DNA of 64,000 nucleotides from positions 352,001 to 416,000 of the forward strand of contig CAVXTP010000021.1 in NCBI GenBank assembly GCA_963764715.1, written 5' to 3'. Shown here in pieces: positions 13,684 to 58,511 of this stretch. Under the pieces are notes generated by a model. It had not been told where the DNA came from, did no database searches, and saw only the letters and a program-made list of their open reading frames with translations. The translations under genes and the position numbers were made by a program. This DNA is from an uncultured Acidobacteriota bacterium (lineage in GTDB: Bacteria; Acidobacteriota; Thermoanaerobaculia; UBA5066; Gp7-AA6). Within the stretch, counting starts at the first letter, position 1. Each line of letters begins with the position of its first letter.

Positions 13684-13710
13684 GCCTTTGCCTCCGCTGA
13701 TGTGGCGGGG

Positions 13711-13716
13711 ATTCTA
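13711..13716 (-). promoter_or_regulatory. Possible sigma70-type -10 element (TAGAAT) upstream of gene 4
   Basis: TAGAAT on the minus strand about 27 nt before the start, in an AT-richer patch. No clear -35. Confidence 0.35.
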
Positions 13717-13775
13717 TCCAAATCGTTCGCGCCAGCTCGGGGCCTCCGGAGCGGCATCGAAGGGCCGCCCGGTCC

Positions 13776-16136: not shown

Positions 16137-16156
16137 GCGATGCCTCCTTTGCCGGG

Positions 16157-18574
16157 CTACGGAAGACGGAAGGCGAGGAACAGAAACGCCGCCATCTGGC
16201 CGCGCGTGACGGAGTTCGTCGGACAGAAGTTGCCGCCCCCGCAGCCGCCGGTGATGTTTTCGGCCGCGAGCTGCTCGATCCAGTCCGCGAACTGCGAGGG
16301 GCAGGGGACGTCGGGGAAGTCGCCGCTGCAGGGCGGCGGAGCGTAGCTCGCGCCGTGCTTGGCCTTCAGCAGGAAGACCGCCATCTGCTGGCGCAACACG
16401 GGATTGCCGGGGCAGTACTTGCCGCCGCCGCAGCCTCCCGTGATGCCTTCCGCGGCGAGCGCCTCGATCCAGTTCGCGAAAGTCGACGGGCAGGCCACGT
16501 CTCCGAAGGTGCCGGAGCAGGGCGGCGGTGTGTAGCAGACGCCGTACTTTCCTTTGAGGAGGAAGACCGCCATCTGCTGCCGCAGCGTGCTGTCGTTGAC
16601 CCCGTAGTTCCCGCCCCCGACGCCGGCGGTGATGTCGCTCCGGACGAGCTTGATGACGGCGCTGTGGAAGATGTTTGCGGGCGGCACATCGAGGAAGTTC
16701 GCGACCCATCCGTTGAAGAGGGTCCCGGAGGAGCCGCTCGGGTTCGTCACGACGATGTCGCTGACGCTCCCGGGCGGGAGGGCGGGCATGTTCGCGTGGA
16801 TCGCGGTGGCGCTGTCGACGACGACGCTCGAGGCGGCGGCCCCCCCCACCGTGACGGTGGCCCCGGCCTCGAAGAGCATGCCGGCGAGCGCCACGTTGGT
16901 TCCGCCGGCGGCAGGGCCGAAGAAGGGCGTGCTGGCGAAGACCAGCTCCTGCGAGAACTCGGAGGTGTTGCCGGAGGGGTCGGTCGCCGTCGCCGTGACG
17001 CGCTCGCCCGGCGCGATGTTGTCCGGCAGGACCGTGTCGAACACGCCGTTGCCCGAAGCGTCGGTCGTCACGACGATCGAGCCCATGTAGTCCTGGCCTT
17101 CGAGCAGGTCCTGGGGCCGCACGTTGCAGATCCTGTAGAAATCCACGTCGTAGGTGGTCGAGGCCTTGCTGTTCAGCGTGCCCTGGACCCGCGTGCCGTT
17201 GCCCTGCGGGATCTGGAGCGTCGCCGACGTCACGACCGGAAAGTTCTGGCGGCCGTTGGGACCCGTGTCCGCGTCGCCCGCGTCGTTGGGAGTGACGCCC
17301 GCAACGCCTCCCACGACGAGGTCGATTCCGAGGCCGTCGACAGTCGCCACCGGCCGATTGGCGTAGATCGAGTTGCCCCGGATCGTCGCCGTTCCCCCGG
17401 TGACTAAGATGCCTCCCGACGGGCTGGAGTTCTTTCCGTTGAACGCGATGAGGTTGCCTTCGCCGGGCCCGATTCCCCCGATGACCGCGCCGGTGGAGCT
17501 CGAAACCTGGATGCCGTTGCGCTGGGCGCCGAGGTCGAGCGTCCCGGTCGCGTCGGTTCCGATGAAATTTCCCCGGATGATCGGCGCGCCGGCGGCCACC
17601 CCGATGCCGTCGTAGACGCCCGCGATGGTGTTGCCGAGGATCTGGATGTTGCCGCTGCCGACGAGGCTGATCCCGCTGAACCCGTCGTTGACGAAGATCC
17701 CGCGGACGATGGCGCGCTGCCCCGTGACGTCGGTCCCGAAGAAGTTGCCCTGAATCGTGAAGTCCGCGGTGCCGAGGAGCTCGACACCCGCGGAAACGTT
17801 GCCGAAGACGTTCCTCGCGGCGGCCGTGGCGCCGCCCACGACGACTCCAGTTCCCGCGCTCAACAGCACGCCCGAGCTCGTATCCCCGACGGCGCGCAGC
17901 CAGTCCAGGCCCGACGGCTTCATCGCGATGAGGTTGCCCTGGATGACGTGTCCCGAGCCGCCGGCGATCTGAACCTGGCCGAAATTGAATCCGGAGATGA
18001 GATTCCGGTCCGCCGGCGTCGTCCCGCCGACGCGGGCTCCCGTCTGCTGGTTGATCAGCACGCCGGCGGAAATGTTTCCGTTGACGGGGATCGTCACGCC
18101 GTCGGTCTTCGTCCCGAGGAAGTTTCCCGCCACGACGTTGTTCGCCACGGCCGACGTGAGCTCGATCGCTGCGCCGGTGCAGTGGTACACCGCGAGGCCC
18201 CGGATCGTGACGTCGCTCGCCTTCGAGATCAGGCATCCGCCGAGCCCTGCGCCGTCGACCTCGATCTGGAGAACCGTGTCGAGGCCCTGGGCCGTCGAGT
18301 GGGTGTTGGGCGACGCTCCGGACTGCGTATAGCCGTCGATCGTCACCGCGCCGGTGATGTCGGGCAGCGCCGACGCGAGAGTGATCGTGTGCGGACCGGT
18401 TCCGACGATCGCGAACGCGATCGTGTCGGGGCCCGGGTTCCCGTTGGCGTCGAGGATCGCCTGGCGCAGCGTCCCGGCGCCGGAGTCGGCCGTCGACATC
18501 ACGGTGTACGTGTTGCCGGCAGCCGTCGCCGTGAGGGTCAGCAAAGCGAGGGCAAGACCGAGTCGCTGGTTCAT
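16157..18574 (-). CDS. Array gene 6: secreted beta-helix/IPT/SLH protein (805 aa)
   Basis: Start MNQRLGLALALL at 18574 after RBS AGGAGA; full family architecture. Confidence 0.9.
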   Translation of the reverse strand: MNQRLGLALALLTLTATAAGNTYTVMSTADSGAGTLRQAILDANGNPGPDTIAFAIVGTGPHTITLASALPDITGAVTIDGYTQSGASPNTHSTAQGLDTVLQIEVDGAGLGGCLISKASDVTIRGLAVYHCTGAAIELTSAVANNVVAGNFLGTKTDGVTIPVNGNISAGVLINQQTGARVGGTTPADRNLISGFNFGQVQIAGGSGHVIQGNLIAMKPSGLDWLRAVGDTSSGVLLSAGTGVVVGGATAAARNVFGNVSAGVELLGTADFTIQGNFFGTDVTGQRAIVRGIFVNDGFSGISLVGSGNIQILGNTIAGVYDGIGVAAGAPIIRGNFIGTDATGTLDLGAQRNGIQVSSSTGAVIGGIGPGEGNLIAFNGKNSSPSGGILVTGGTATIRGNSIYANRPVATVDGLGIDLVVGGVAGVTPNDAGDADTGPNGRQNFPVVTSATLQIPQGNGTRVQGTLNSKASTTYDVDFYRICNVRPQDLLEGQDYMGSIVVTTDASGNGVFDTVLPDNIAPGERVTATATDPSGNTSEFSQELVFASTPFFGPAAGGTNVALAGMLFEAGATVTVGGAAASSVVVDSATAIHANMPALPPGSVSDIVVTNPSGSSGTLFNGWVANFLDVPPANIFHSAVIKLVRSDITAGVGGGNYGVNDSTLRQQMAVFLLKGKYGVCYTPPPCSGTFGDVACPSTFANWIEALAAEGITGGCGGGKYCPGNPVLRQQMAVFLLKAKHGASYAPPPCSGDFPDVPCPSQFADWIEQLAAENITGGCGGGNFCPTNSVTRGQMAAFLFLAFRLP

Positions 18575-18596
18575 TGGGCGTTCTCCTGTCCCGAAT

Positions 18597-18623
18597 CTCG
18601 ACAAATGGCGGCGGCCGGGGTCA
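18597..18623 (-). promoter_or_regulatory. Putative ECF sigma promoter TGACCC-N12-TTTGTCGAG
   Basis: Same bipartite motif and spacing upstream of genes 6, 8, 9 and 10; here 22 nt before the ATG. Confidence 0.7.
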
Positions 18624-18672
18624 AGCGAAAACGGGCCGTGAGGCCCGTTTTGAAACAGTGGCGGCCGCGGGG

Positions 18673-18705
18673 GGGAGGCGACCCGCCCCCCGGGGCGCGC
18701 CTCCC
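18673..18705. terminator. GC-rich hairpin downstream of gene 7
   Basis: Outer stem GGGAGGCG...CGCCTCCC with inner CGCCCC/GGGGCG, lying between the gene 7 stop and the gene 6 promoter motif. Confidence 0.4.
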
Positions 18706-18724
18706 GGGCGGTCCGGAAGAGGGT

Positions 18725-21127
18725 CTACGGCAGCGAAAAAGCATTGACCAGGAACGCGGCCATCTGGCCTCGGGTGACGTTGTTCTGCGGACAGAAGGTC
18801 GTTCCGCCGCAACCGCCCGTGACGCCCTCCGCCTGCAGCTGTTCGATCCAGTCGGCGAAGGGACCCGGGCAAGGCACGTCCGTGAAGTGGCCGTCGCAGG
18901 GCGGCGGGATGAACTGGGAGCCGTGCTTTCCCTTCAGCAGAAAGACCGCCATCTGGTCGCGCCGCACGGGATTGTCGGGGCAGTAGTTGCCGCCGCCGCA
19001 GCCGCCGGTGATGCCTTCCGCGGCGAGCTGCTCGATCCATGGCGCGAAGTTGTTCGAGCACGGGACATCCGGGAATACGCCGGAGCAGGGCGGCGGCACG
19101 TAGCACGCTCCGTGGGCCGCCTTCAGGAGGAAGACCGCCATCTGCTGGCGCTTCGTGTTCTGGGCCGGGCCGTAGAAGCCCCCGCCGACGCCGGCGGTGA
19201 TGCCGTTGCCGACGAGGCGCATGACGTAGAGGTAGAACTGGTGGCTGGAGGCGACGTCGAGGAAGTCGGTCAGCCAGCCGTTGGGCAGCGTGTCGACCGG
19301 GCCGCCCGGGTTCGACACGACGATCGAGTTCACGGAGCCGGGAGGAAGGCTGGGCGTCTTCAGCGAAAGCGTGTGCACATCGGTCACCTGCACGTTCGAC
19401 GCCGCCGCGCCTCCGACGGTGGCGGTCGCTCCGTCCTCGAACGCGAGGCCGGTCAGGACGATCGTCGCGCCCGACGGTCCGTACGACGGCAGGCCGTAGA
19501 AGATGGCGCGGGGCGAGAGCTCGGAGGTGTTTCCGGCCGGGTCGATCGCGGTCGCTGAAACGGGGGACCCATCGGGGAGCGCGACCGGGAGGATGACGTT
19601 CACGACGGCGTGGCCGGAACCGTCCGTCGTGGCCGTGCTCGAGCCGATGTACGTCCGCGCCTCGGGCAGGTCCTGGGGACGACGCTCGCAGATCGGATCC
19701 GCATAGAAGTCGAGGTCGTAGATCGTCGAGGGCGCGCTGTCCAGCACGCCGGCGACGGTCGTGGTCGAAACGCCGTAGGTGACGGAAGAGAGGACCGGGA
19801 AGTTCTGTAACCCGTTGGGCCCGGCGTCGGCGTCGCCGGCGTCGTTCAGCGTGACTCCGTTGCCGGCGACAAGCAGGTCGATGGCGAGGCCCGAGTGGTA
19901 GTTGCCTCCGGGGTTGTCGAAGATCGCGTTTCCGCGGATCGTTGCCTTGCCGGCGTTCTCGACGCCCACGCCGGCCAGTCCCGAGTTCGAGATGACGTTG
20001 CCTTCTCCCGGATTGACGCCGCCGATGATCGTCCCCGTCGCCAGGACGCGGATGCCGTAGGTCGGGTTGCGAAGGCGGATGAGGCCGGTCTCGTCCGTGC
20101 CGATGAAGTTGCCCTGGATCACCGAACCCGTCGCCGACTGGTACACGGAGATACCCGAGGCATCCGATCCCCCGACGAGGTTACCGGCGCCCGGGGTTGC
20201 GCCTCCCACGGTGTTGTCCGGGTCGTTGAGCGCGATGCACTCGTTGTGACAACCGAACGCGAAGGTCCCGGTGACGTCGATGTCGACGTAGTTGCCCTGG
20301 ATCAAATTGTCGGACGCGACGATCCCGGGAGTGCCGGAGCCGCCGACGTTGATCCCTCCGCTGATGACGTTGCGGGCCGCGGGCGTCGTCCCGCCGATGA
20401 CGTTGTTCGATCCGACGAACAAGGAGAGACCCTTCGAGCCGAACTCGTTCAAGCTCTTCTTTCCCGTGATGTCGGTGCCGATCAGGTTGCCGGCGACGAG
20501 GCTGTCGTGAAACCCGGGCGCTCCGCCCCCGAGCTGTACCAAACCCGCGAAGAGGTTGCGCGCGGCGGGTGTCGTTCCGCCGATCCGGGCGTTGTTCGCG
20601 TCGAGACTGAATCTCAGCGAGCCTTGAAACGGAGCGGGAATCTGCGTTCCGGACGGGTCGGTGCCGAGGAAACAGCCCTCGATGACGAATCCCTGGTGCC
20701 CTCCGGTGACGTCGATCTCGTACTGCGGCGCGCGATTGATGACGAAGCCCTTCAGCGTGACGTCGTCGGCGCTGACGACCATGCAAGTCGCCGCGCCGAC
20801 GTTGGTGCAGTCGATCTCAATCTGCAGGACCGTGTTGAGCCCGAGGCTGGTCGGGTTGGTGTTGACCGAAGACCCGGCCTGCGTATAGCCGTCGACGGTC
20901 GAGGGCCCGGTGATCGCGGGCAGGGGGGAGGCCAGGGAGATCGTGTGGGGGCCGGTTCCCACGACGCCGAAGGCAATTGTGTCGACGCCGGGGTTGCCGT
21001 TGGCATCCAGGATCGCCTGGCGCAGGGTCCCGGCGCCGGAATCGGCCGTCGACGTCACCGTGTAGGTGTTGCCGAGAGCGGCCACGGATGCGAAGGCACC
21101 GACCAGAGCCAGCAGAGTCCGCTTCAT
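18725..21127 (-). CDS. Array gene 7: secreted beta-helix/IPT/SLH protein (800 aa)
   Basis: C-terminal part of ORF 18725..23242; start MKRTLLALVG at 21127 after RBS AGGAGG. Confidence 0.9.
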   Translation of the reverse strand: MKRTLLALVGAFASVAALGNTYTVTSTADSGAGTLRQAILDANGNPGVDTIAFGVVGTGPHTISLASPLPAITGPSTVDGYTQAGSSVNTNPTSLGLNTVLQIEIDCTNVGAATCMVVSADDVTLKGFVINRAPQYEIDVTGGHQGFVIEGCFLGTDPSGTQIPAPFQGSLRFSLDANNARIGGTTPAARNLFAGLVQLGGGAPGFHDSLVAGNLIGTDITGKKSLNEFGSKGLSLFVGSNNVIGGTTPAARNVISGGINVGGSGTPGIVASDNLIQGNYVDIDVTGTFAFGCHNECIALNDPDNTVGGATPGAGNLVGGSDASGISVYQSATGSVIQGNFIGTDETGLIRLRNPTYGIRVLATGTIIGGVNPGEGNVISNSGLAGVGVENAGKATIRGNAIFDNPGGNYHSGLAIDLLVAGNGVTLNDAGDADAGPNGLQNFPVLSSVTYGVSTTTVAGVLDSAPSTIYDLDFYADPICERRPQDLPEARTYIGSSTATTDGSGHAVVNVILPVALPDGSPVSATAIDPAGNTSELSPRAIFYGLPSYGPSGATIVLTGLAFEDGATATVGGAAASNVQVTDVHTLSLKTPSLPPGSVNSIVVSNPGGPVDTLPNGWLTDFLDVASSHQFYLYVMRLVGNGITAGVGGGFYGPAQNTKRQQMAVFLLKAAHGACYVPPPCSGVFPDVPCSNNFAPWIEQLAAEGITGGCGGGNYCPDNPVRRDQMAVFLLKGKHGSQFIPPPCDGHFTDVPCPGPFADWIEQLQAEGVTGGCGGTTFCPQNNVTRGQMAAFLVNAFSLP

Positions 21128-21135
21128 GGTCCCTC

Positions 21136-23586
21136 CTAGGGAAGCTTGAACGTGTTGACGAGGAACGCCGCCATCTGTCCGCGAGTGACGTTGGTGAGAG
21201 GGCAGTAGTTGTTGCCGCCGCAGCCGCCGGTGACACCCTCCGCGGCGAGCTGCTCGATCCAGTTCGCAAAGGTCGAGGGGCAGGCGACGTCGGTGAAGTC
21301 GCCGCTGCACGCCGGCGGAACGAAGGACGAGCCGTGCTTGGCCTTGAGCAGAAATACGGCCATCTGGTCGCGGCGCACGGGGTTGCCGGGGCAGTAATTG
21401 CTGCCGCCGCAGCCGCCCGTGATGCCTTCGGCCGCGAGCGCCTCGATCCACGGCGCGAAGGTCGAGGGGCACGCGACGTCGGAGAAAACTCCGGCGCAGG
21501 GTGGCGGCACGTAGCAGACGCCGTACTTGGACTTGAGGAGGAAGACGGCCATCTGCTGGCGCAGCGTGCTCGAAGCGACGCCGTAGTTCCCGCCGCCCAC
21601 GCCGGCGGTGATGCCGTTGGCGACGAGCTTGGTGACCTGGGTGAGGAACTGGTTTCCCGGGAGGACGTCGTTGAAGTACGCGATCCAGCCGTTCGGAAGG
21701 GTCCCCGAGAGGCCGCCCCCCGGGTTCTGCACGACGACGGAGTTGATCGAGCCGGCCGGCAATGCGGGGATGTTGGCGGTGATCGTGTTCGCGTCGTCCA
21801 CGACGACCCCGGTGGCCGCCACGCCGCCGACCGTCACCGTGGCGCCGGCCACGAAGGCGAGCCCCTTGATCTGCGCGCCAAAGTGTCCGGTGGTCGACCC
21901 TGCCCCCGGCGCCATCGAAAGCACGAAGCGCGGGGTGAATTCCGACGTACTGCCGTTGGGGCTCGTCGCCGTGGCGCTGATGGGCGAGCCGTTCGTGACC
22001 GCGAGCGGCAGGATCGCGTTGAAGGTGGCGTTGCCGGATCCGTCGGTCGTCACCTGCGTCGAGCCGAGATAGGTCTGGCCCTCCGGAAGGTCCTGCGGCC
22101 GCCGCGAGCACGCCGGGTTGGCGTAGAAATCGAGGTCGAAGATCGTGGCCGCACCGCTGTTCAGGGTCCCGGCGACGGTCGTCGTCGAGCCGCCGTACGC
22201 CACCGACGAGATGACCGGAAAATTTTGGAGCCCGTTCGCGCCGGTGTCGGCGTCTCCGGTGTCGTTGAGCGTGACGCCCGCGAAGCCGTCGTGGAGATCG
22301 ATCCCGAGGCCGTCGGTCGACTGGTACGCGTTCGTGTCGTAGATCGAGTTGCCCCGGACGGAAACCCCCTGCCCCCCCGCGACGTAGACGCCGGCGCCGG
22401 GGGCCGTCACGCCGACGGCGGGACCGTTGTTGGCGATGACGTTGGCCTCGCCGGGCCCGGTGCCTCCGACCGTCACGGCGTCCGCGACGACGTAGATGCC
22501 GTTCGAGCCGTTGCCGAGCCGGGCGGTTCGGGTCGAATCCGTGCCGATGAAATTGCCCTGGATGACCGTCGAGTCTCCGTGGACCTCGATTCCGCCGTTG
22601 CCGAGCCCGCCGGCGATGACGTTGCCCGCCCCCGCGGCAGCGCCCCCGATCGTGTTGCCCTGGTTGTTGGCGACGACGCAGCCGCCGTAGCAGCCGAGCG
22701 CAAGCAGGCCCGTGGCATCGGTGCCGAGGAAGTTGCCCCGGACGAAATTGCCGGTCGCGAAGGAATCGTTCCAGCCGCCCCCGAGATTGATCGTGTTGAC
22801 GATCACGTTGGGGGCGCCGGCGGACGTGCCGCCGACGGTGATTCCCGTCCCCATGAAGATGCCGACGGACTGGGTGGCGTTCGTCGCGAGCTTCGCGGTG
22901 CCGGAGGCGTTCGTGCCGATGAGGTTGCCCTGGATGAGGTGGCCGCTGTTGACCCCGAAATTCTCGCCGATGTGGACCTGGTGGTACCCGCTGTCGCCGC
23001 CCGAGATCAGGTTGCGCGCGGCGGGCGTCGTGCCCCCGATGCGCGCGTTCTGGGCGGAGACCAGGTTGACGCCGTTCTGGTAGGGCGAGAGCGCCTGCGT
23101 GCCGTCGGCGCTCGAACCGAGGAAGCAGCCCTCGACGACGAGGTTCTGGTGGGAGGGCGGCGGAGTCTCGATGTCCGGCCCGGCGCAGCGATTGATCGCG
23201 AGGCCGCGGATCGTGACGTTGTCGGCCTGGACCGACAGGCACGGCGTGGCCCCGGCATTCGTGCCGTTGATCTCGATCCGCAAGACGGTGTTCAGCCCCT
23301 GTCCCGTCGGGTTCGTATTGGCCGAGGAGCCCGCCTGCGTGAAGCCGTCGATCGTCACGGGCCCGGTGATCGCGGGCAGCGCCGAGATCGGCGAGATCGT
23401 CTGGACCCCGCTGCCGACGATCCCGAAGGCGATCGTATCGGCCCCCGGGTTGGCGTTGGCGTCGAGGATCGCCTGGCGCAGGGTCCCGGCTCCCGAATCG
23501 GCCGTGGACGTGACGGTGTAAGTGTTCCCGGCGGCGATCGCCGCGGCGGCGAACAGAGCCCAGGCGAGTCCGAGACGCTTATGCAT
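21136..23586 (-). CDS. Array gene 8: secreted beta-helix/IPT/SLH protein (816 aa)
   Basis: Start MHKRLGLAWALF at 23586 after RBS AGGAGA; full family architecture. Confidence 0.9.
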   Translation of the reverse strand: MHKRLGLAWALFAAAAIAAGNTYTVTSTADSGAGTLRQAILDANANPGADTIAFGIVGSGVQTISPISALPAITGPVTIDGFTQAGSSANTNPTGQGLNTVLRIEINGTNAGATPCLSVQADNVTIRGLAINRCAGPDIETPPPSHQNLVVEGCFLGSSADGTQALSPYQNGVNLVSAQNARIGGTTPAARNLISGGDSGYHQVHIGENFGVNSGHLIQGNLIGTNASGTAKLATNATQSVGIFMGTGITVGGTSAGAPNVIVNTINLGGGWNDSFATGNFVRGNFLGTDATGLLALGCYGGCVVANNQGNTIGGAAAGAGNVIAGGLGNGGIEVHGDSTVIQGNFIGTDSTRTARLGNGSNGIYVVADAVTVGGTGPGEANVIANNGPAVGVTAPGAGVYVAGGQGVSVRGNSIYDTNAYQSTDGLGIDLHDGFAGVTLNDTGDADTGANGLQNFPVISSVAYGGSTTTVAGTLNSGAATIFDLDFYANPACSRRPQDLPEGQTYLGSTQVTTDGSGNATFNAILPLAVTNGSPISATATSPNGSTSEFTPRFVLSMAPGAGSTTGHFGAQIKGLAFVAGATVTVGGVAATGVVVDDANTITANIPALPAGSINSVVVQNPGGGLSGTLPNGWIAYFNDVLPGNQFLTQVTKLVANGITAGVGGGNYGVASSTLRQQMAVFLLKSKYGVCYVPPPCAGVFSDVACPSTFAPWIEALAAEGITGGCGGSNYCPGNPVRRDQMAVFLLKAKHGSSFVPPACSGDFTDVACPSTFANWIEQLAAEGVTGGCGGNNYCPLTNVTRGQMAAFLVNTFKLP

Positions 23587-23608
23587 TGAGCTTTCTCCTG
23601 TGGCGTAT

Positions 23609-23635
23609 CTCGACAAAGTGCGGCCTCCGGGGTCA
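23609..23635 (-). promoter_or_regulatory. Putative ECF sigma promoter TGACCC-N12-TTTGTCGAG
   Basis: Motif copy 22 nt upstream of the gene 8 ATG. Confidence 0.7.
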
Positions 23636-23748
23636 AGGAAAAAGAGGTTGGGGACCGCGGCTCCCGGCCGTGCGGCGGACCCGATCCGCCGTTCGGAAGT
23701 CCCGGGAAGGGGCCTCCGGCGCCTCCCGATGGCACGGGCCGGAGACTA

Positions 23749-23770
23749 CGGGCGGGCGCAAGCCCGCCCG
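23749..23770. terminator. Perfect hairpin downstream of gene 9
   Basis: CGGGCGGGC-GCAA-GCCCGCCCG, 9-bp stem with a tetraloop, 23 nt after the gene 9 stop. Confidence 0.5.
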
Positions 23771-23793
23771 AGGGAGTCGAGGAAAGGCTCCCT

Positions 23794-26208
23794 CTACGGG
23801 AGGTCGAACGCGTTGTACAGGAAGGCCGCCATCTGGCCGCGGGTCACGTTGTTGGCCGGGCAGTAGTTGCCGCCGCCGCAGCCGCCGGTGACCCCTTCGG
23901 CCGCGAGCTGCTCGATCCAGGGACTGAAGGGCGATGCGCAACTGACGTCGAGGAAGTCGCCGTCGCAGGGCGGCGGCACGTACGACGCCCCGTGCAGGGC
24001 CTTGAGGATGAAGACCGCCATCTGGTCCCGCCGAACGGGGTTGCCCGGGCAGTAGTTGCCGCCGCCGCAACCGCCCGTGATGCCCTCCTCGGCGAGCTGC
24101 TCGATCCACGGGGCGAAGCCGGAGCCGCACGGAACGTCGCCGAAGACACCCGCGCACGGGGGCGGCGTGTAGCAGATCCCGTACTTGGCCTTCAGGAGGA
24201 AGACCGCCATCTGCTGCCGGAGCGTCGGCTGGCTGATCCCGTAGTTGCCGCCGCCCACGCCGGCCGTGATGCCGTTGGCGACGAGGCTCGTGATCTGCGT
24301 GTAGAACTGGCTGCCGGGGATGTCGTTGAAATTCGAGATCCAGGCGTTCGGAAGCGTCCCCGAAGCCCCGCCGCCGGGATTGGCGACCGTGAGGGCGTTG
24401 ATGCTTCCGGCCGGCAGCGCCGGGATGTTGGCTGTGATCGTCGTCGAATTGTCGACGGTCACTCCGGTCGCGGGGACGCCCCCGACCGTGACCGTCGCGC
24501 CCGGCTCGAACGCGAGGCCGCGGATCTGCGCGCCGGTGACGCCGGTCGGCGAGCCGGACACGGGGTCGAGCGAGAGCACGAACCGCGGCGAAAGCTCGGA
24601 GGTCGCGCCGGACGGGCTCGTGGCCGTGGCCGTGATCGGCGATCCGTTCACGACGACGACCGCGAGAACCTCGTTGAAGGCCGCGTTGCCGGACCCGTCC
24701 GTCGTGACTTCGATCGAGCCGATGTAGGTCTTCGCCTCGTCCTGCTCCTGCGGGCGGCCGTTGCACGCGGGGTTGGAATAGAGGTCGACATCGAAGGTGG
24801 TCGACGGGGTGCTCTGGAGCGTTCCGGCGATCGTGGTATTCGCGCCTCCGTAGGTCACCGAGGAGATCAGCGGATAGTTCTGGTAGCCGTTCGGGCCGCC
24901 ATCCGCGTCTCCGGCATCGTTGATGTTGACGCCCAGCTCGAAGAGATTGCCGCCGGTGAGGTCGATGGCGAGGCCGCTGTTGGCCTGGATCCCGGCGTTG
25001 TCGAAGATCGAGTTCCCGCGCACGGAGGCGTTGACGCCGTGGACCACGACCCCCGCCCAGCCGCGGTTGTACGCGATGATGTTGCCCTCGCCGGGGCCGA
25101 TGCCGCCGATCGTGTTGTTCGAGCCGCCGACCTTGATGCCCCAGTAGCCGTTGGCGAGGCGGACGGTGCCCGTGGCGTCGGTTCCGACCTGGTTGCCCTG
25201 GACGACGTTGCCGTCGCCACTGAGCTCGATTCCCGAGTCGATCGCCCCGCCGACGCGGTTGCCCGCCCCGGCGGCGGAGCCGCCGATCGTGTTGTTGTTG
25301 GAGCCGCTGTTGACGGTGATGCCGACGGAAGTCACGGCGATGACGATCGTGCCCGTGACGTCGAGCCCGACGAAGTTGCCCACGATCTGGTTGCCCGTGC
25401 CGTTGACCAAGATCGGGCCGGCGAACACGTTGCGGGCGCCGGCCGTCGTGCCGCCCACGACGTTGTTGATGCCACCGCCGGTGCCCATCGCCAGCGGACC
25501 GTCCGGGATGAGGAGATGAAGGCCCGTGACGTCCGTGCCGACCAGGTTGCCGGCGACGAGCGAATTCGATACGGGCTCCGTGATCCCCAGCCCGAAAGCG
25601 ATGTGATCGGCGAACAGGCTGTCGCCGGACACCAGGTTGCGGGCGGCCGGTGTCGTGCCGCCGATCCGGGCGTTGGTCTGGGATCGCGGATTGATCCCGC
25701 CGCCGTACGGCGCGAGGGCCACCGCTCCCGCCGCGTCGGTGCCGATGAAGCAGCCCTCGAGGACGAAGTCCGTGTGCGCGCCGGTGGTCGCGACCGCCCT
25801 GTCGGTGCACCGGTTGACGACGAGCCCGCGGATCGTGACGTCGTCGGCAGCGGCGAACAGGCACGGCGCGGCTCCGGCGTTGGTCCCGTCGATCTCGATG
25901 CGGAGGACGGTGTTGAGGCCCTGGCTGGCCGGGTTCGTGTTGGCCGATGCCCCCGACTGGGTGTAGCCGTCGATCGTCACCGGGCCCGTGATCGTGGGCA
26001 GCGCGGACGCCGGCGCGATCGTGTGCACGCCGCTGCCGACGACCGCGAAGGCGATCGTGTCGGCTCCGGGATTGGCGTTGGCGTCCAGGATCGCCTGGCG
26101 AAGGGTCCCGGCTCCCGAGTCGGCGGTCGAGGTCACGGTGTACGTTGTCGCGAACCCGAAGGCGGCGACCCCGGACAGGATGGCGGCGAGGCCGATTCGC
26201 TGGAGCAT
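23794..26208 (-). CDS. Array gene 9: secreted beta-helix/IPT/SLH protein (804 aa)
   Basis: Start MLQRIGLAAILS at 26208 after RBS AGGAGGAG; full family architecture. Confidence 0.9.
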   Translation of the reverse strand: MLQRIGLAAILSGVAAFGFATTYTVTSTADSGAGTLRQAILDANANPGADTIAFAVVGSGVHTIAPASALPTITGPVTIDGYTQSGASANTNPASQGLNTVLRIEIDGTNAGAAPCLFAAADDVTIRGLVVNRCTDRAVATTGAHTDFVLEGCFIGTDAAGAVALAPYGGGINPRSQTNARIGGTTPAARNLVSGDSLFADHIAFGLGITEPVSNSLVAGNLVGTDVTGLHLLIPDGPLAMGTGGGINNVVGGTTAGARNVFAGPILVNGTGNQIVGNFVGLDVTGTIVIAVTSVGITVNSGSNNNTIGGSAAGAGNRVGGAIDSGIELSGDGNVVQGNQVGTDATGTVRLANGYWGIKVGGSNNTIGGIGPGEGNIIAYNRGWAGVVVHGVNASVRGNSIFDNAGIQANSGLAIDLTGGNLFELGVNINDAGDADGGPNGYQNYPLISSVTYGGANTTIAGTLQSTPSTTFDVDLYSNPACNGRPQEQDEAKTYIGSIEVTTDGSGNAAFNEVLAVVVVNGSPITATATSPSGATSELSPRFVLSLDPVSGSPTGVTGAQIRGLAFEPGATVTVGGVPATGVTVDNSTTITANIPALPAGSINALTVANPGGGASGTLPNAWISNFNDIPGSQFYTQITSLVANGITAGVGGGNYGISQPTLRQQMAVFLLKAKYGICYTPPPCAGVFGDVPCGSGFAPWIEQLAEEGITGGCGGGNYCPGNPVRRDQMAVFILKALHGASYVPPPCDGDFLDVSCASPFSPWIEQLAAEGVTGGCGGGNYCPANNVTRGQMAAFLYNAFDLP

Positions 26209-26230
26209 GTAGGACTCCTCCTGACCCTGA

Positions 26231-26257
26231 CTCGACAAAACGCCGGGCCGGGGGCCA
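26231..26257 (-). promoter_or_regulatory. Putative ECF sigma promoter TGGCCC-N12-TTTGTCGAG
   Basis: Motif copy 22 nt upstream of the gene 9 ATG. Confidence 0.65.
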
Positions 26258-26286
26258 GGAGGAAATCCGCGATCGCCGCGGGGTCG

Positions 26287-28698
26287 CTACGGGAGCGAGA
26301 ATGCCTTGACCAAAAACGCCGCCATCTGCCCCCGGGCGACGCTCGTCGTGGGGCAGTAGTTGGCGCCGCCGCACCCGCCCGTGATCTCGTCGGCCGCGAG
26401 CTTTTCGATCCAGTCGGCGAAGGACGACGGGCAGGCCACGTCGTCGAACACCCCGGTGCACGGAGGGGGCGTGAACGTCGAGCCGTACTTGCCCTTCAGC
26501 AGGAACACGGCCATCTGGTCGCGCCGCACGGGGGAGGTCGGGCAGTAGTTGCCTCCTCCGCAACCGCCGGTGATCCCTTCCGCGGCGAACTGCTCGATCC
26601 ACGGCGCGAAGATCGAGTTGCAGGGCACGTCGGGAAAGTCCCCCGAGCAGGGCGGCGGCACGTAGCAGATTCCGTGCTTGGCCTTGAGGACGAAGACCGC
26701 CATCTGCTGGCGCGTGACGCTGACGGCGGGGCAGTAGTTGCCGCCGCTGCACCCCGCCGTGACCCCGGACGCCACGAGTTTGCCGATGAGGCTGTCGAAC
26801 AGGCTGTTCTTCACCACGTCGTTGAAGCGCGAGACGTAGCCGTTGCGAAGCGTGCCCGAGAGGCCGCCGGGATTCGCGACGACGATGTCGTAGACCCCGC
26901 CGGGAGAGAGCGCCGGGCCGGTGAAATCGAGCTTGTACTCGGTGTCGAAGCTGACCGGAACGGGATTCCCGCCGATCGTCATGGTGGCCGCGGGGTCGAA
27001 CAGGTGCCCGCGGACGGACTGGAGGCCGGTGTCCCCCGGGCCGCCGAGGCCGGGAACCGAACGGAAGACGATTTCCTGCCAGAGCTCGGAAGTGTTGCCT
27101 TCGGGCCCGGTCGCCGTCGCGGTGACGGGCGCACCCGCCGCGATCGGCGTCGGGAGAAGGACGTTGAAGGCGACGTTGCCCGAGCCGTCGGTCGTGACCT
27201 GCGCCGTGCCGATGTAGGTCTCGGCCTGGAGGAGAGCCCGCGGCCGGCTGCGGCACGACGGGTTGGCGTAGAAGTCGAGATCGAACACCGTCGAGGCGAG
27301 GCTGTTGAGCGTCCCGATCACGCGCGTCCCGCCGGCCTCCGGGACGGCCGACGTGATGAGCGGGTAGTTCTGGAAGTCGTTCCCGAACTGGATGGTGACG
27401 CTGTCGGCGTCGCCGAGGTCGTTGGGGTTCTGACCGCTGGGCGTGCTGCCGTTGGCCAGATCGATGGCCAGCCCCACACCGTTGGCGCCGACGCCGCCGA
27501 TCCCGTTGTTGAAGATTCGATTCCCCCGGATGGGATTCTCCTGCGCGAAGTCCGTTACGAGGATGCCGACCCACCCGTTGTAGGCGATGACATTGGGCTG
27601 TCCCGGGCCGATGCCGCCAACGGTCTGGGCGTGTGTGCTCAGGAAGATGCCCATGATGCGGTTGCCGAAGTTCTTCGTGGCGGTGGTGTCGGTCCCGATG
27701 AAGTTGCCGTAGAGCGGGGTCAGGAAGCTGTCCAGGAAAATGCCGTAGTCGAAGCCGCCGATCACGTTGCCTTCGCCCGGTCCGGTGCCGCCGACCGTGC
27801 TGCCGCCGGGACCAGGCACCTTGATGCCGCTCGTGCCGCTGGAGATGACTCCCGCCTGGGCCGCATCGACGCCGATGAAGTTGCCCTGCACGGTCGCCAT
27901 CGCCGTGCCGATCCCGACGCCGACGTCCATGCCGGCGACGACGTTGGCCGCGTTCGGGTCGGCCCCCCCGACCGTGATGGGGGAGGAACCCGAGAGGCTG
28001 ATCCCGATGCCGGCGCCGGAGGTCCCGGGCATGGCTCGCGCTCCCGTGATGTCCGTGCCGATGAGATTGCCCTGGATGACACCGCCGTAGCTCATGGCCA
28101 CGCCGATGGACCCTCCATTCGAGATCAGATTGCGCGCGGCGGGGGTCAACCCGCCGATGCGTGCGCCGGGGCTGTCGTTGCTGACGCCATGGCCGCCGAC
28201 GTACCCCTGGAGCCCGTCCGGGCTCGCCCCGACGAAGCAGCCTTCGACGACGAGGTTGGAGTGCAGGAACGAATCGCTCCCGCCGATCTGATCCTGGGAA
28301 AAACGGTTGACCGCAAGGCCCCGGAACGTCACGCCGGGGATGCGGGCCTCGAGGCCGTTCCCGGTCGTTGCCGTGCCGGCGATCTCGATCATCAGGACCG
28401 TGTTCAGCCCGAGGCCCACGGCATTCGTGTTGGGCGACGCGCCCGCCTGCGTGTAGCCGTCGACCGTCACGGCGTCGGTGATGGGCGGCAGAGGCGTCGC
28501 CGGCGCGATCGTGTGCACTCCCGATCCAACGATGGCGAAAGCGATCGTGTCCGCGCCGATAGCGGCGTTGGCGTCGAGGATCGCCTGGCGGAGAGACCCC
28601 GGTCCCGAGTCGGCCGTCGAAGTCACCGTGTACGTGGTCGCGGAGACGACCGCCGCGGCCGCGAAACAGGCGACGGCCATACCGAGTCGGTTGAGCAT
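26287..28698 (-). CDS. Array gene 10: secreted beta-helix/IPT/SLH protein (803 aa)
   Basis: Start MLNRLGMAVACF at 28698 after RBS AGGAGG; divergent from the ECF sigma gene. Confidence 0.9.
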   Translation of the reverse strand: MLNRLGMAVACFAAAAVVSATTYTVTSTADSGPGSLRQAILDANAAIGADTIAFAIVGSGVHTIAPATPLPPITDAVTVDGYTQAGASPNTNAVGLGLNTVLMIEIAGTATTGNGLEARIPGVTFRGLAVNRFSQDQIGGSDSFLHSNLVVEGCFVGASPDGLQGYVGGHGVSNDSPGARIGGLTPAARNLISNGGSIGVAMSYGGVIQGNLIGTDITGARAMPGTSGAGIGISLSGSSPITVGGADPNAANVVAGMDVGVGIGTAMATVQGNFIGVDAAQAGVISSGTSGIKVPGPGGSTVGGTGPGEGNVIGGFDYGIFLDSFLTPLYGNFIGTDTTATKNFGNRIMGIFLSTHAQTVGGIGPGQPNVIAYNGWVGILVTDFAQENPIRGNRIFNNGIGGVGANGVGLAIDLANGSTPSGQNPNDLGDADSVTIQFGNDFQNYPLITSAVPEAGGTRVIGTLNSLASTVFDLDFYANPSCRSRPRALLQAETYIGTAQVTTDGSGNVAFNVLLPTPIAAGAPVTATATGPEGNTSELWQEIVFRSVPGLGGPGDTGLQSVRGHLFDPAATMTIGGNPVPVSFDTEYKLDFTGPALSPGGVYDIVVANPGGLSGTLRNGYVSRFNDVVKNSLFDSLIGKLVASGVTAGCSGGNYCPAVSVTRQQMAVFVLKAKHGICYVPPPCSGDFPDVPCNSIFAPWIEQFAAEGITGGCGGGNYCPTSPVRRDQMAVFLLKGKYGSTFTPPPCTGVFDDVACPSSFADWIEKLAADEITGGCGGANYCPTTSVARGQMAAFLVKAFSLP

Positions 28699-28719
28699 GG
28701 GGATCCTCCTGTCAAAGGA

Positions 28720-28746
28720 CTCGACAAAAAGCAGCGTCAAGGGACA
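28720..28746 (-). promoter_or_regulatory. Putative ECF sigma promoter TGTCCC-N12-TTTGTCGAG
   Basis: Motif copy 21 nt upstream of the gene 10 ATG, in the divergent region shared with the sigma gene. Confidence 0.7.
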
Positions 28747-28831
28747 CGGAACGGCTCGGGTCAATGGGAATTCGGGCTCGGCGTCCTCGGCGGCGGCTCC
28801 CGCCGGCCGGGGGGAGCCGGGGCACCTCCGA

Positions 28832-28837
28832 TACAAT
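28832..28837 (+). promoter_or_regulatory. Sigma70-type -10 element (TACAAT) for the ECF-kinase operon
   Basis: TACAAT 10 nt before ATG 28848 with no SD sequence, consistent with a near-leaderless transcript. Confidence 0.45.
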
Positions 28838-28847
28838 TCGGGCATTC

Positions 28848-29441
28848 ATGACGGAGAATCCACCGGCGCCCAGGCCTGAAGAGGTCACGGGTCTCCTGCG
28901 CGCCGCCGAGGCGGGCGACCGGGAGGCCCTGGACCGCGTGTTCTCCGTGCTTTACGGGGAGTTGCGTGCGATCGCCCACCGCCAGCTCCAGGGGGCTCCC
29001 GCCGAGCAGACCCTGTCGACGACCGCCCTCGTCCACGAGGCCTATCTCAAGCTTTCGCGCGGCGCGGGCTGGACGGCGAAGGACCGCCAGCACTTCTTCT
29101 CGCTCGCCGCGCGGGCGATGCGGATGATCCTCGTTGACCAGGCCCGCTCGCGCACCCGGCAGCGCCGCGGCTCCGGGAAACGGCCCCTCGATCTCGAGAA
29201 CGTCGAGATACCCGTCGAGGAGCGCGCCGCCGAGATCGTTGCGCTCGACGAGGCGCTCGTCCGGCTCGGAGAAGTCGACGGCGAGCTCGCGCAGATCGTC
29301 GAGTGGCGGTTCTTTGCCGGGCTCTCCGTGGAGGAGATCGCGGAGATGTCGGGCCGGTCGGAGCGGACGGTCAAGCGGCACTGGCAGGCGGCGCGGGCGT
29401 TTCTCTACCAGGAGCTCGCGGCGCCGGGATCGGAGGCGTGA
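28848..29441 (+). CDS. ECF sigma factor, TIGR02999 / ECF43-like (phosphorylation-activated type)
   Basis: EVTGLLRA...LYGELRAIAHRQL..QTLSTTALVHEAYLKL...HFFSLAARAMRMILVDQAR...RFFAGLSVEEIAE..SERTVKRHWQAARAFL. STTA replaces the usual DAED motif. Confidence 0.92.
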   Translation: MTENPPAPRPEEVTGLLRAAEAGDREALDRVFSVLYGELRAIAHRQLQGAPAEQTLSTTALVHEAYLKLSRGAGWTAKDRQHFFSLAARAMRMILVDQARSRTRQRRGSGKRPLDLENVEIPVEERAAEIVALDEALVRLGEVDGELAQIVEWRFFAGLSVEEIAEMSGRSERTVKRHWQAARAFLYQELAAPGSEA

Positions 29442-32209
29442 CCACCGGGGGGCGCTGGACCGAGGTCCGCGTGCTCTTCGAAGAGCTCGTCGAGGTTCCG
29501 GCCGAGGAACGCGAGCGCCGGATCGCGGCGCTGCCCGACCCGGACCTGGCCTCGCGTGTCGCACGCCTGCTCGCCGCGGACTCCGAGGCGGGGCGGTTCC
29601 TCGAGACGCCCGCCGTGGCCGTCGCGGGCGGCCTCTTCGACGGCCTCGCCGCCACCGAGAGCGAGGCGCCGCCTCCGGAGCGGATCGGCCCGTACCGGGT
29701 GCTCCGTCGGCTCGGCCGGGGAGGAATGGGGGAGGTGCTCCTCGCCGAGCGCGCGGACGGGCTCTTCGAGCAGAAGGTCGCGATCAAGCTGCTCCGGCGG
29801 GGGATGGCTTCCGACGAGGTCCTCGCGCGCTTCTCGCGCGAGCGCCGGATCCTCGCCCGTCTCGAGCACCCGCACATCGCGCGCCTCCTCGACGGCGGAG
29901 CGACGGAGGACGGGCGGCCGTACTTCGTCATGGAGCTCGTCGAGGGCGAGCCCATCACCGACTACTGCCGCACCCGTGACCTGTCCGTCGAGGAGCGGCT
30001 GCGCCTGCTCGAGGACTGCTGCGACGCCCTGGCGGCGGCGCACCGCAACCTCGTCGTGCATCGGGACCTCAAGCCCTCGAACGTGCTGGTGACCCGCGAC
30101 GGCGAGGTCAAGCTCCTCGACTTCGGCATCGCGAAGCTGCTCGGCCCCGAGGACACGGGCGAGGCCGCGGCCGAGACGCGGACGGAGCTGCGGCTGCTGA
30201 CGCCGGCCTACGCCGCCCCCGAGCAGATCTTCGGGGAGCCCGTCACGACGGCGACGGACGTGTGGGCGCTCGGCGCCCTGGCGTACGAGCTCCTGACCGG
30301 CACGCTGCCGCAGAAGCGGGAGAGCCGGTCGCCCTCCTCGCTCGCCGCGTCTGCCGCCGACGACGTGACGGAGCGCCCCAGCCAGCGCGTCGCCCGCGAG
30401 CCGCTCGCCGCACTGCCGCTCTCCGCGCCGAGGGAGGGAGACCGGCGGCGTCTCGTCAAGCGGCTGCGCGGCGATCTCGACAACGTCGTCCTGGCGGCGC
30501 TTCGCCGGGCGCCCGAGCGCCGCTACGGCTCGGTGACCGCGTTCGCCGGCGACCTGCGCCGCCACCGGGAGGGGCAGCCGGTCAAGGCGCGGCCGGACAC
30601 CGTCGGATATCGCGTCGGCAAGTTCGTCCGGCGCAACCGCGTCGTCGTCGCGGCCGGCATCCTCGTCATCGCGTCCCTCGTGGCGGGGCTCGCGGTCGCG
30701 GCGTGGCAGGCCCGGCGCGCCGAGGCGCACGCGAAGACCGCGGCGGCCGCGGCGCGGCGGGCCGAGAGCGTCAAGGAATTCCTGATCGGCCTCTTCGAGG
30801 TCGCCGATCCGGAGCAGGCCTCGGGCGGGTCGGTCACGGCCAGCGAGCTTCTCGACCAGGCCGGCCGCCGGCTCGAGACGGAGCTCTCCTCCGAGCCCGA
30901 CATCCAGGCGGACCTCCTCGAGGCCGTCGCCCGCATCGACCGGGGCCTCGGCCGGCTCGACACCGCCGGGGACCTCGCGAAGCGCTCGCTCGAGATTCGC
31001 CAGCGCATCCTGCCCTCGGGCGCCGCGGCCATCGGCCGGAGCCTCGCCACGCTCGGCGCCGTCAGCATGTCGAAGGGCCAGCTCGACGAGGCCGAGAAGC
31101 AGATCACCGCGGCGCTCGCGGTCCTGGAGAAGACCGAGCCGCCCGACAGCCTCGCCACGGCGCGCGCGAAGAGCGACTTCGCCCAGGTGCGCTTCTGGAA
31201 AGGCGACGCCATTCCGGCGGAGAAGATCGAGCGCGGCGTCTACGAGACCTACCGGCGCGTGCTGGGCGACGACAACGCGCAGACGGCGATGCACCTGCGC
31301 AACCTCGGCGTGCTTCTCGACGAGCTCGACCGGCTCGACGAGGCCGAGAAGGCGTACCGCGACTCTCAGGCCGTGCTGGTGAAGCGGCTCGGTCCGGACC
31401 ACGTCAACCTCGGGTACAGCTACCTGAACCTCGCGGTCCTGCTCGGGGGGCGGCGCAACCAGTCGGCCGAGGCGGAAGCGCTCTACAAGCGCACGCTCGA
31501 GATCCGCCGCAAAGCGCTCGGCCCGAAGCATCCGACGGTCGGCCAGGCGCTCCAGCTCTCCGGCCTCTTCTACCTGAACCAGGGGCGGCTCGAGGAGTCC
31601 GAGGCTGCCTACGGCGAGGCGCTGGCGCTCTTCTCCGGGATCGACCCGAAGCACTTCGAGGTCGGCAAGTGCAAGAACGGGCTCGCGCTCATCGCCTCCC
31701 GCCGCGGCCGCTACGCCGAGGCCGAGGCCACCATGGCGGAGGTCGAGGCCCTGTTCCGGGAGGTCCTCGGCGAGAAGCATCCCTTCACCTGGCAGGTCCG
31801 CGGAAACCGCGCATCGCAGATCGGGCTGCAGGGCCGGCTCGACGAGGAGGAGTCGCTCGAGCGCGAGGTCGCGGCGAAGCTCGAGGAGCTCAACGGCAAG
31901 GACTCGGGCGAGGCTCTGGACGCGCGCGCGCGGCTGGCGGAAACGCGGCGCAAGCGCGGGCACCCCGACGAGGCCTTGCCCGTGCATCGCGAGGTCCTCG
32001 CGGCCGTCGTCAAGATGGAGGGTGAGGACAGCACCTGGGTCTCACTGCTCCGCTACCAGGTCGCGGCGGACCTCCTCGCGGCGGGCAAACCGGAGGACCG
32101 GGCCGAGGCGAAGGCCTTGCTCGACCGTGCCCTCGCGGTGCTCGAGAAGCAATCGCCGCCGCACCAGCGACTCGCCGAGGTCCAGGCCCTCCGCAAGAGC
32201 GCCGGCTGA
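29438..32209 (+). CDS. Membrane Ser/Thr protein kinase with C-terminal TPR repeats (923 aa)
   Basis: GTG overlaps the sigma stop (GTGA). GRGGMG, VAIK, HRDLKPSN, DFGIAK and YAAPEQ motifs; TM helix VVVAAGILVIASLVAGLAVAAW; TPR-like helical repeats after it. Confidence 0.93.
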   Translation: MTTGGRWTEVRVLFEELVEVPAEERERRIAALPDPDLASRVARLLAADSEAGRFLETPAVAVAGGLFDGLAATESEAPPPERIGPYRVLRRLGRGGMGEVLLAERADGLFEQKVAIKLLRRGMASDEVLARFSRERRILARLEHPHIARLLDGGATEDGRPYFVMELVEGEPITDYCRTRDLSVEERLRLLEDCCDALAAAHRNLVVHRDLKPSNVLVTRDGEVKLLDFGIAKLLGPEDTGEAAAETRTELRLLTPAYAAPEQIFGEPVTTATDVWALGALAYELLTGTLPQKRESRSPSSLAASAADDVTERPSQRVAREPLAALPLSAPREGDRRRLVKRLRGDLDNVVLAALRRAPERRYGSVTAFAGDLRRHREGQPVKARPDTVGYRVGKFVRRNRVVVAAGILVIASLVAGLAVAAWQARRAEAHAKTAAAAARRAESVKEFLIGLFEVADPEQASGGSVTASELLDQAGRRLETELSSEPDIQADLLEAVARIDRGLGRLDTAGDLAKRSLEIRQRILPSGAAAIGRSLATLGAVSMSKGQLDEAEKQITAALAVLEKTEPPDSLATARAKSDFAQVRFWKGDAIPAEKIERGVYETYRRVLGDDNAQTAMHLRNLGVLLDELDRLDEAEKAYRDSQAVLVKRLGPDHVNLGYSYLNLAVLLGGRRNQSAEAEALYKRTLEIRRKALGPKHPTVGQALQLSGLFYLNQGRLEESEAAYGEALALFSGIDPKHFEVGKCKNGLALIASRRGRYAEAEATMAEVEALFREVLGEKHPFTWQVRGNRASQIGLQGRLDEEESLEREVAAKLEELNGKDSGEALDARARLAETRRKRGHPDEALPVHREVLAAVVKMEGEDSTWVSLLRYQVAADLLAAGKPEDRAEAKALLDRALAVLEKQSPPHQRLAEVQALRKSAG

Positions 32210-32218
32210 GGCTCCGCT

Positions 32219-58464: not shown

Positions 58465-58484
58465 GGGCTTGCCCTTCTCCTTCA

Positions 58485-58511
58485 CGCGCGAAAACCGCCC
58501 AAACGGGATCA
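58485..58511 (-). promoter_or_regulatory. Related ECF-like motif TGATCC-N12-TTTCGCGCG upstream of gene 20
   Basis: Same length as the four-copy motif and 20 nt before the ATG; shares CCCGTTTGG with the 53055 site. Confidence 0.4.

Follow-up and report, generated by a model that had tools for sequence, protein, structure and literature searches.

Candidate promoters for a kinase-linked ECF43-like sigma factor upstream of surface-protein genes in a Thermoanaerobaculia genome

How are neighbouring, closely similar surface-protein genes switched on in a soil bacterium without genetics? The question is raised by a 64,000-nucleotide stretch (hereafter, the window) of an uncultured Acidobacteriota bacterium (Thermoanaerobaculia, lineage Gp7-AA6; assembly GCA_963764715.1, contig CAVXTP010000021.1, positions 352,001 to 416,000), in which the same bipartite motif stands before four successive transcription units, to the left of a divergent gene encoding an extracytoplasmic function (ECF) sigma factor (28848-29441). 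The initial annotation, made from the sequence alone, had taken the two boxes for the -35 and -10 elements of this sigma factor, a reading supported here by the conservation of the boxes, their ECF-like geometry and the co-variation of the motif with the sigma clade. The four sites are probably promoters of the ECF type, recognised by RNA polymerase when it carries the ECF43-like sigma encoded next to them.

A bipartite motif before four transcription units

All four sites lie on the minus strand and comprise a TG(A/G/T)CCC box, a 12-nt spacer of variable sequence and a second box, TTTGTCGAG, followed by a CAGGAG Shine-Dalgarno sequence and an ATG. Sites 1 (18597-18623) and 2 (23609-23635) both read TGACCC-N12-TTTGTCGAG and end 22 nt before the ATG of genes g6 and g8, which head the units g6-g5 and g8-g7, respectively. 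Site 3 (26231-26257; TGGCCC-N12-TTTGTCGAG) begins 29 nt past the stop codon of g10 and its second box lies 22 nt from the ATG of g9, whereas at site 4 (28720-28746; TGTCCC-N12-TTTGTCGAG), within the divergent intergenic region common to g10 and the sigma gene, the distance to the ATG of g10 is 21 nt. A pattern scan of the window for TG(A/G/T)CCC-N12-TTTGTCGAG returned exactly these four matches, on the minus strand only, with 0 expected, and confirmed the sites, constant spacer length and 21-22 nt distance to the ATG described in the initial annotation. None of 100 shuffled sequences matched TGDCCC-N12-TTTGTCGAG, and the second box by itself occurs in the window at the four sites only (0.44 copies expected). 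The hexamer, 17 nt and CGAG reproduce the geometry of ECF promoters, namely two short asymmetric boxes at a fixed spacing (about 16-17 nt) separated by a variable spacer.

Across the whole 4.36-Mb genome, TTTGTCGAG is present in 19 copies, vs 8 for the reversed control, and the bipartite form followed by a start codon was found at the four window sites only. The looser core TGNCCC-N17-CGAG (hereafter, the A-type motif) has 66 matches, vs 82 for its reversed control, yet a Shine-Dalgarno sequence, start codon and open reading frame (ORF) follow it at the four window sites only, all of them at most 10.3 kb from the sigma gene.

The adjacent sigma-kinase pair and its paralogs

The neighbouring sigma (sigA; 28848-29441, plus strand; 197 aa from ATG 28848) matches both PF07638 (E 9.3e-48; 163 bits, cut-off 21.1) and TIGR02999 (196.7 bits, cut-off 126.15), as befits an ECF sigma of the Sigma70_ECF / Sig-70_X6 type, in which only regions 2 and 4 are present. 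The acidic DAED patch of ECF region 2.2 contacts core polymerase and is replaced by STTA in EcfP, as described in the available text of PMC8999054 and PMC8103513; for the kinase-activated group as a whole, QTTA is the consensus given at this place in that of PMC13147305. sigA reads LSTTALVHEAY, ...EQTLSTTALVHEAY..., with STTA at the place of DAED in region 2.2 as judged by eye rather than from an alignment with EcfP. Immediately downstream, a Hanks-type Ser/Thr kinase of 923 aa (29438-32209, plus strand; Pkinase E 1.2e-41), with one transmembrane helix at about residues 400-420 and then a TPR domain, is encoded with a start that overlaps the sigma stop by 4 nt (GTGA). The neighbours of the sigma gene are this kinase gene and the divergent surface-protein gene, and no anti-sigma gene adjoins it (this concerns the locus only, no genome-wide anti-sigma search having been made). 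Together, the PF07638 and TIGR02999 matches, the STTA patch, the co-encoded Hanks kinase and the lack of an adjacent anti-sigma support assignment of sigA as ECF43-like, as far as its sequence and gene context can tell.

For comparison, orthologs of sigA were collected from 16 loci, all in Acidobacteriota/Thermoanaerobaculia metagenome-assembled genomes, with sigmas 67-96% identical; together with the window, the sigA set comprises 17 loci. ATG 28848 is the likely start of sigA and the in-frame upstream ATG 28764 less likely, since the Pfam match starts at residue 39 of the longer ORF and GATACAAT occupies 28830-28837. The latter contains a TACAAT box (28832-28837, plus strand) 10 nt before the sigma ATG, kept in orthologs as TAnAAT (ATTnTA on the opposite strand) and invariant in 10 of 10 aligned loci. 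This is probably the sigma gene's own housekeeping-type -10 element, giving a nearly leaderless mRNA devoid of a Shine-Dalgarno sequence. Autoregulation was considered and rejected: the A-type motif was found on the sigma strand in 0 of the 17 loci, the TAnAAT box being there instead. Hence, sigA is probably not autoregulated, and the lack of such a signal alongside a housekeeping-type box fits control by phosphorylation. Between the sigma -10 box and site 4, at about 28780-28825 (minus strand), we also observed an apparent decayed second copy of the motif (GTGCCCC, 12 nt, ...GGGAG); a similar relic lies beside the sigma in loci L032, L041 and L042, with a working copy further on.

In this genome, 13 ORFs match PF07638 (5 strongly, 8 more weakly), and sigA was compared with two of its paralogs. 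All five strong matches have Thr at the same place, and the gene after each is about 900-1000 aa long. The sigB set comprised 15 orthologous loci and this genome's own, 16 in all, and the sigC set 28 loci (68-100% identity), including this genome's copy. sigB loci carry the motif TGACCC-N12-TTTCTCGCGG, and sigC loci carry GTGA(T/G)CCC-N12-13-yTGCGCGTG, directed away from the sigma on the divergent strand. On the divergent strand, over about 300-420 nt ahead of each sigma gene, we counted pattern A (TGNCCC-N17-CGAG), pattern B (TGNNNC-N17-CGCGG) and pattern C (TGANCC-N13-18-GCGCGT). Pattern A was present in 13 of 17 sigA loci, none of the 16 sigB loci and none of the 28 sigC loci; pattern B was confined to the sigB set (13/16; 0/17 sigA, 0/28 sigC) and pattern C to the sigC set (18/28; 0/17 sigA, 0/16 sigB). 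The genes beside sigC orthologs vary between species while the sigC motif stays. The -10 box found next to the sigma differs from one paralogous clade to another, which ties the motif to the sigma and not to the family of target genes and argues for putative sigma-cognate promoters. By eye, the region-4 recognition helices of sigA, sigB and sigC are similar and the region-2 loop differs (SRGAGWTAKDRQ in sigA, IDQTRVTWRNRG in sigB, TNQRDVVWQNRA in sigC), a difference that may relate to that between the -10 boxes.

The other modules also leave traces near the window. The sigB/kinase module (G000 C21:349102-352142, ending at about window position 142) lies just left of it, divergent from three more genes of the family, with its own motif, TGACAC-N17-CGCGG, at C21:349015; the same variant is found in 13 of the 16 sigB loci. 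Genome-wide, pattern B has 334 matches, too loose for a regulon, and only the match beside sigB is credible. Of the 32 matches to pattern C, five precede genes for secreted proteins. The window contains one of the five, a TGATCCC...CGCGCGT motif at 58484-58511 (minus strand), 19 nt before the ATG of a family paralog (gene start 58464); the matching sigma is encoded on another contig (G000 C13:119245-119802).

The co-variation bears directly on the possibility that the motif is a promoter or operator read by another factor, whether a paralogous PF07638 sigma (especially sigB), another ECF sigma or a DNA-binding regulator. Such a reader could be sought among the 5 strong and 8 weaker PF07638 matches, and the three sigma clades have in common a -35 box resembling TGNCCC and, ahead of the -10, a T-rich stretch. 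However, the A-type box stands beside 13 of 17 sigA orthologs and beside no sigB or sigC ortholog, all four sites of this genome are at most 10.3 kb from sigA, and the two boxes are mutually unrelated and asymmetric, unlike typical dimeric operator sites. We therefore consider another reader unlikely.

Several observations nonetheless weigh against assigning the sites to sigA. The link to sigA is made by adjacency and co-variation, and among the 13 PF07638-matching ORFs of the genome sigA is singled out by adjacency only. The three patterns were defined after viewing the same sets, and the diagonal of the comparison is partly there by construction, the off-diagonal zeros at fixed spacing being independent. 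On the divergent strand, a looser, variable-spacer version of pattern B also matches in 3 of 28 sigC loci; on the sigma strand, it does so in 6 of 16 sigB and 2 of 28 sigC loci. The -35 boxes are nearly alike in the three clades and the sigA and sigB boxes are 1-2 bases apart; cross-recognition between sigA- and sigB-type boxes may occur. Four of the 17 sigA loci lack the exact motif beside the sigma: L030 deviates from it at one position; in L033 and L043 a TAGAAT/TAGGAT-type box takes its place, and the motif comes further along; and L036 has a different neighbour gene and no motif beside the sigma, its copy preceding a family gene about 3 kb away. The related genomes are also non-independent samples. 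Finally, a sequencing-run search found no RNA run with the sequence, returning only soil DNA runs with at most 0.13 of the words.

Conservation of the boxes among relatives

Recognition of the sites by the housekeeping sigma-70 (RpoD) was also evaluated, given that cTTGACCcc at 18597 and 23609 fits TTGACA in 5 of 6 positions and could serve as a -35 element at sites 1 and 2. Sites 3 and 4, however, read CTGGCC and GTGTCC, and no TAnnnT box was found 16-18 nt downstream of the candidate -35. A consensus scan of 13000-30000 (TTGACA, 16-18 nt, TATAAT with A2 and T6) gave 0 sites, with 0.9 expected, whereas clear TACAAT/TAGAAT boxes occur elsewhere in this taxon, for example at the sigma gene. Housekeeping promoters are thus a very unlikely explanation of the four sites.

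The initial annotation had itself pointed out that equally conserved flanking DNA would indicate simple descent by duplication. This was not what we found. Among the four window copies, invariant columns gather in TG-CCC, TTTGTCGAG, the Shine-Dalgarno sequence and the ATG, while no alignment could be made upstream of the first box and the spacer varies. To extend the comparison across species, a broader consensus, TG(G/T/A)CCC-N17-CGAG, was derived from the 75 nt upstream of every family gene in the ortholog loci, and its core was scanned over both strands of the 16 loci and of 20 kb from the window, 624,504 positions in total. The scan gave 29 exact matches; behind 22 of them a family gene starts with its ATG after 18-38 nt, and all 22 are divergent from the sigma. 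Site 23609 is a 23rd such match, uncounted since a TTG within its box was taken as the gene start. Besides these, there were seven instances with one mismatch, that of L044 being spurious.

Ten of the 17 intergenic regions next to the sigma gene were aligned with MAFFT; the longer regions (L032, L041, L042 and the window) and the loci in which the gene beside the sigma has no motif (L033, L036 and L043) were left out. GGCCC and CGAG were invariant in 10 of 10, and the spacer was variable. Across 23 unique instances counted by eye (window site 18597 was filtered out), G occupies the position two bases before CGAG in 22, a position that had not been used for selection. The three positions preceding this G have T in 15/23, T in 17/23 and T or C in 23/23 (12 T and 11 C), and in 12 of the 23, by eye, three or more consecutive T occur in the 6 nt that follow the -35 box. 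The second box, called invariant in the initial annotation, is identical in the four window copies, but only TGNCCC, CGAG and the G two bases before CGAG are conserved cross-species. Judging from these counts, the TTTGT part of the box is a local version of TTYGn, specific to this genome and a few close relatives.

When 40 relatives were searched with the pattern alone, seven more congeneric genomes proved to carry the motif, 19-25 nt ahead of genes of the same family; in two of these, a sigma ortholog lies about 100-150 nt from the motif, and the match in genome G030 was a chance one. The distant sigma homologs L045-L053 (41-52% identity) stand beside other genes and show no A-type motif by eye. 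Because the boxes persist in orthologous loci while the spacer and flanks change, these comparisons support a motif kept by selection, more than a relic of duplication. Two features of the relatives may be added. At L033:7447, L036:6995 and L043:7392, the TGTCCC -35 box doubles as the 3' arm of the terminator hairpin of the upstream gene, followed by a T run, so that terminator and promoter overlap; in L026 and L044, the family gene behind the motif is frameshifted.

These data leave little room for the view that the four copies are alike merely from recent tandem duplication or gene conversion, their boxes having no function of their own. The motif-bearing genes are indeed paralogs that share a leader, a Shine-Dalgarno sequence and an M-x-x-R-L-G-L-A signal-peptide start, and some within-genome homogenisation is likely, the 9-mer being identical in all four sites vs variable in its first five bases in orthologs. 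However, flanks and spacer are unconserved among the four copies, the boxes persist across species at fixed spacing despite unrelated spacers and different signal peptides, and 22 of the 29 exact core matches stand at the same place before a gene, by which the duplication-only reading is largely refuted and now seems highly improbable. The least probable account is that the second box acts in the mRNA, its UCGAG pairing with CUCGG of codons 5-6 to mask the ribosome-binding site for translational control: RNAalifold proposes such a 7-bp UCGAG/CUCGG stem from the four copies, but at -4.2 kcal/mol and with a covariation term of 0 this stem is weak, an mRNA element would need a transcription start upstream of the box, CGAG persists in orthologs with other signal peptides while its CTCG partner is at varying positions or missing (3/23; a weak test, CTCG being common in Leu-Ala-rich, GC-rich leaders), and an Rfam scan of 13000-33000 in E-value mode gave no family, only a chance miRNA match (E 0.32).

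Target units, the proposed switch and known kinase-activated sigmas

The six genes behind the motif encode products of 786-816 aa, each with a signal peptide, an N-terminal block of 11 residues and C-terminal SLH domains; the four genes directly behind a site are paralogs of about 800 aa, secreted and of the SLH/beta-helix type. Genes were called from third-position G+C plots (the window has 68% G+C) and N-terminal motifs. All are on the minus strand, and their coordinates bear out the grouping of six genes into four units in the initial annotation. g10 (28698-26287), a secreted SLH-domain paralog of 803 aa with the N-terminal 11-residue block, and g9 (26208-23794; 804 aa) form single-gene units. 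g8 (23586-21136; 816 aa) heads the unit g8-g7, with g7 (21127-18725; 800 aa, SLH E 2e-18) 8 nt past it and devoid of a motif of its own. g6 (18574-16157; 805 aa), with SLH, IPT/TIG, Beta_helix and NosD domains, heads the unit g6-g5, in which g5 (16136-13776; 786 aa) has a GTG start 20 nt past g6 and likewise no motif of its own.

The boundary between g7 and g6 is marked by an intrinsic-terminator-like hairpin after g7 (18628-18651, minus strand; AAAACGGGCC-UCAC-GGCCCGUUUU), with a 10-bp stem in both minimum-free-energy and centroid folds; the hairpin is followed by UUUU and ends 4 nt ahead of TTGACCCC of site 1. A terminator consensus scan did not list it, yet folding shows the hairpin clearly. 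RNA folding found no convincing terminator between g10 and g9 or after g9. Leftward, the next gene (ORF 13713-11293) lacks the A-type motif, and the 62-nt gap upstream of it (about 13714-13775, minus strand) contains tttGGATAGAAT, which resembles an extended housekeeping -10 box; hence, the sigA-type units end at g5.

These units are part of a far larger family. A regular-expression search, which missed g6, puts it at no fewer than 33 members genome-wide, with 27 on this contig at about 317-420 kb. There, C21 (window at 352-416 kb) carries about 27-28 SLH/beta-helix paralogs on one strand, a roughly 100-kb array broken by two sigma/kinase modules. It is conceivable, though we offer this only tentatively, that at least three kinase-gated sigmas split this array of about 28 genes into separately switched sets, such that the coat would change with external signals. 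An equally tentative corollary is that sigA, sigB and sigC would share a -35 box and be kept apart by one to three -10 bases (GnCGAG, CGCGG and GCGCGT).

Returning to sigA as the probable reader of the four sites, the following switch can be proposed. The sigma gene would be transcribed from its own housekeeping-type TACAAT promoter together with the gene of the membrane Ser/Thr kinase. On sensing a signal, the kinase would phosphorylate sigA in the uncharged STTA patch, by analogy with EcfP/PknT, and the phosphorylated sigma would then be able to bind core polymerase. The holoenzyme would recognise TGNCCC as -35 and GnCGAG as -10, 17 nt apart, and start transcription presumably a few bases downstream, giving leaders of about 13-18 nt that include the Shine-Dalgarno sequence. 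In this way, six paralogous SLH/beta-helix surface proteins in four units would be switched on.

Two ECF43 sigmas activated through phosphorylation by a Hanks-type kinase have been described, EcfP/PknT of Vibrio parahaemolyticus and EcfK/PknS of Xanthomonas citri (PMC8999054, PMC8103513 and PMC13147305, each in its available text). Kinase-activated ECF sigmas are widespread, yet in the literature text examined only these two have been studied, with no target promoter described. Likewise, no ECF43 promoter consensus was found in that text. A literature search joining Thermoanaerobaculia and sigma factor returned no papers. As a regulon prediction, the present one is ordinary in kind. It supplies a concrete predicted promoter code, TGNCCC-N17-CGAG, for a kinase-activated ECF sigma, and links a putative kinase-sigma switch to SLH-anchored surface proteins in Thermoanaerobaculia.

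As far as the available descriptions go, the locus resembles both characterised pairs in having a PF07638/TIGR02999-type sigma, a membrane Hanks kinase, no adjacent anti-sigma and an adjoining target cluster, and its STTA in place of DAED is identical to that of EcfP. Unlike EcfP and EcfK, it belongs to the Acidobacteriota (Thermoanaerobaculia), its cargo consists of SLH/beta-helix surface proteins and not of polymyxin-resistance genes or a type VI secretion system, its kinase has a TPR domain after the transmembrane helix, and several paralogous modules occur in one genome. A second comparison is offered by the sigW, sigX, sigM and sigV promoters of Bacillus subtilis, given in the available text of PMC5758882 as TGAAAC ... 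CGTA/CGTC with a -35-proximal T-tract. Like these, the sites described here are bipartite and asymmetric with fixed spacing and a -10 that starts with CG, and a T run follows the -35 in 12 of the 23 orthologous instances. Unlike these, the -35 is TGNCCC rather than of the AAC type, the -10 is GnCGAG, and all four window sites lack the T-tract. In both systems, paralogous sigmas appear to be told apart by one or two -10 bases, and the two natural variants from paralogous modules of the same genome provide a system in which to ask how close sigmas avoid cross-talk.

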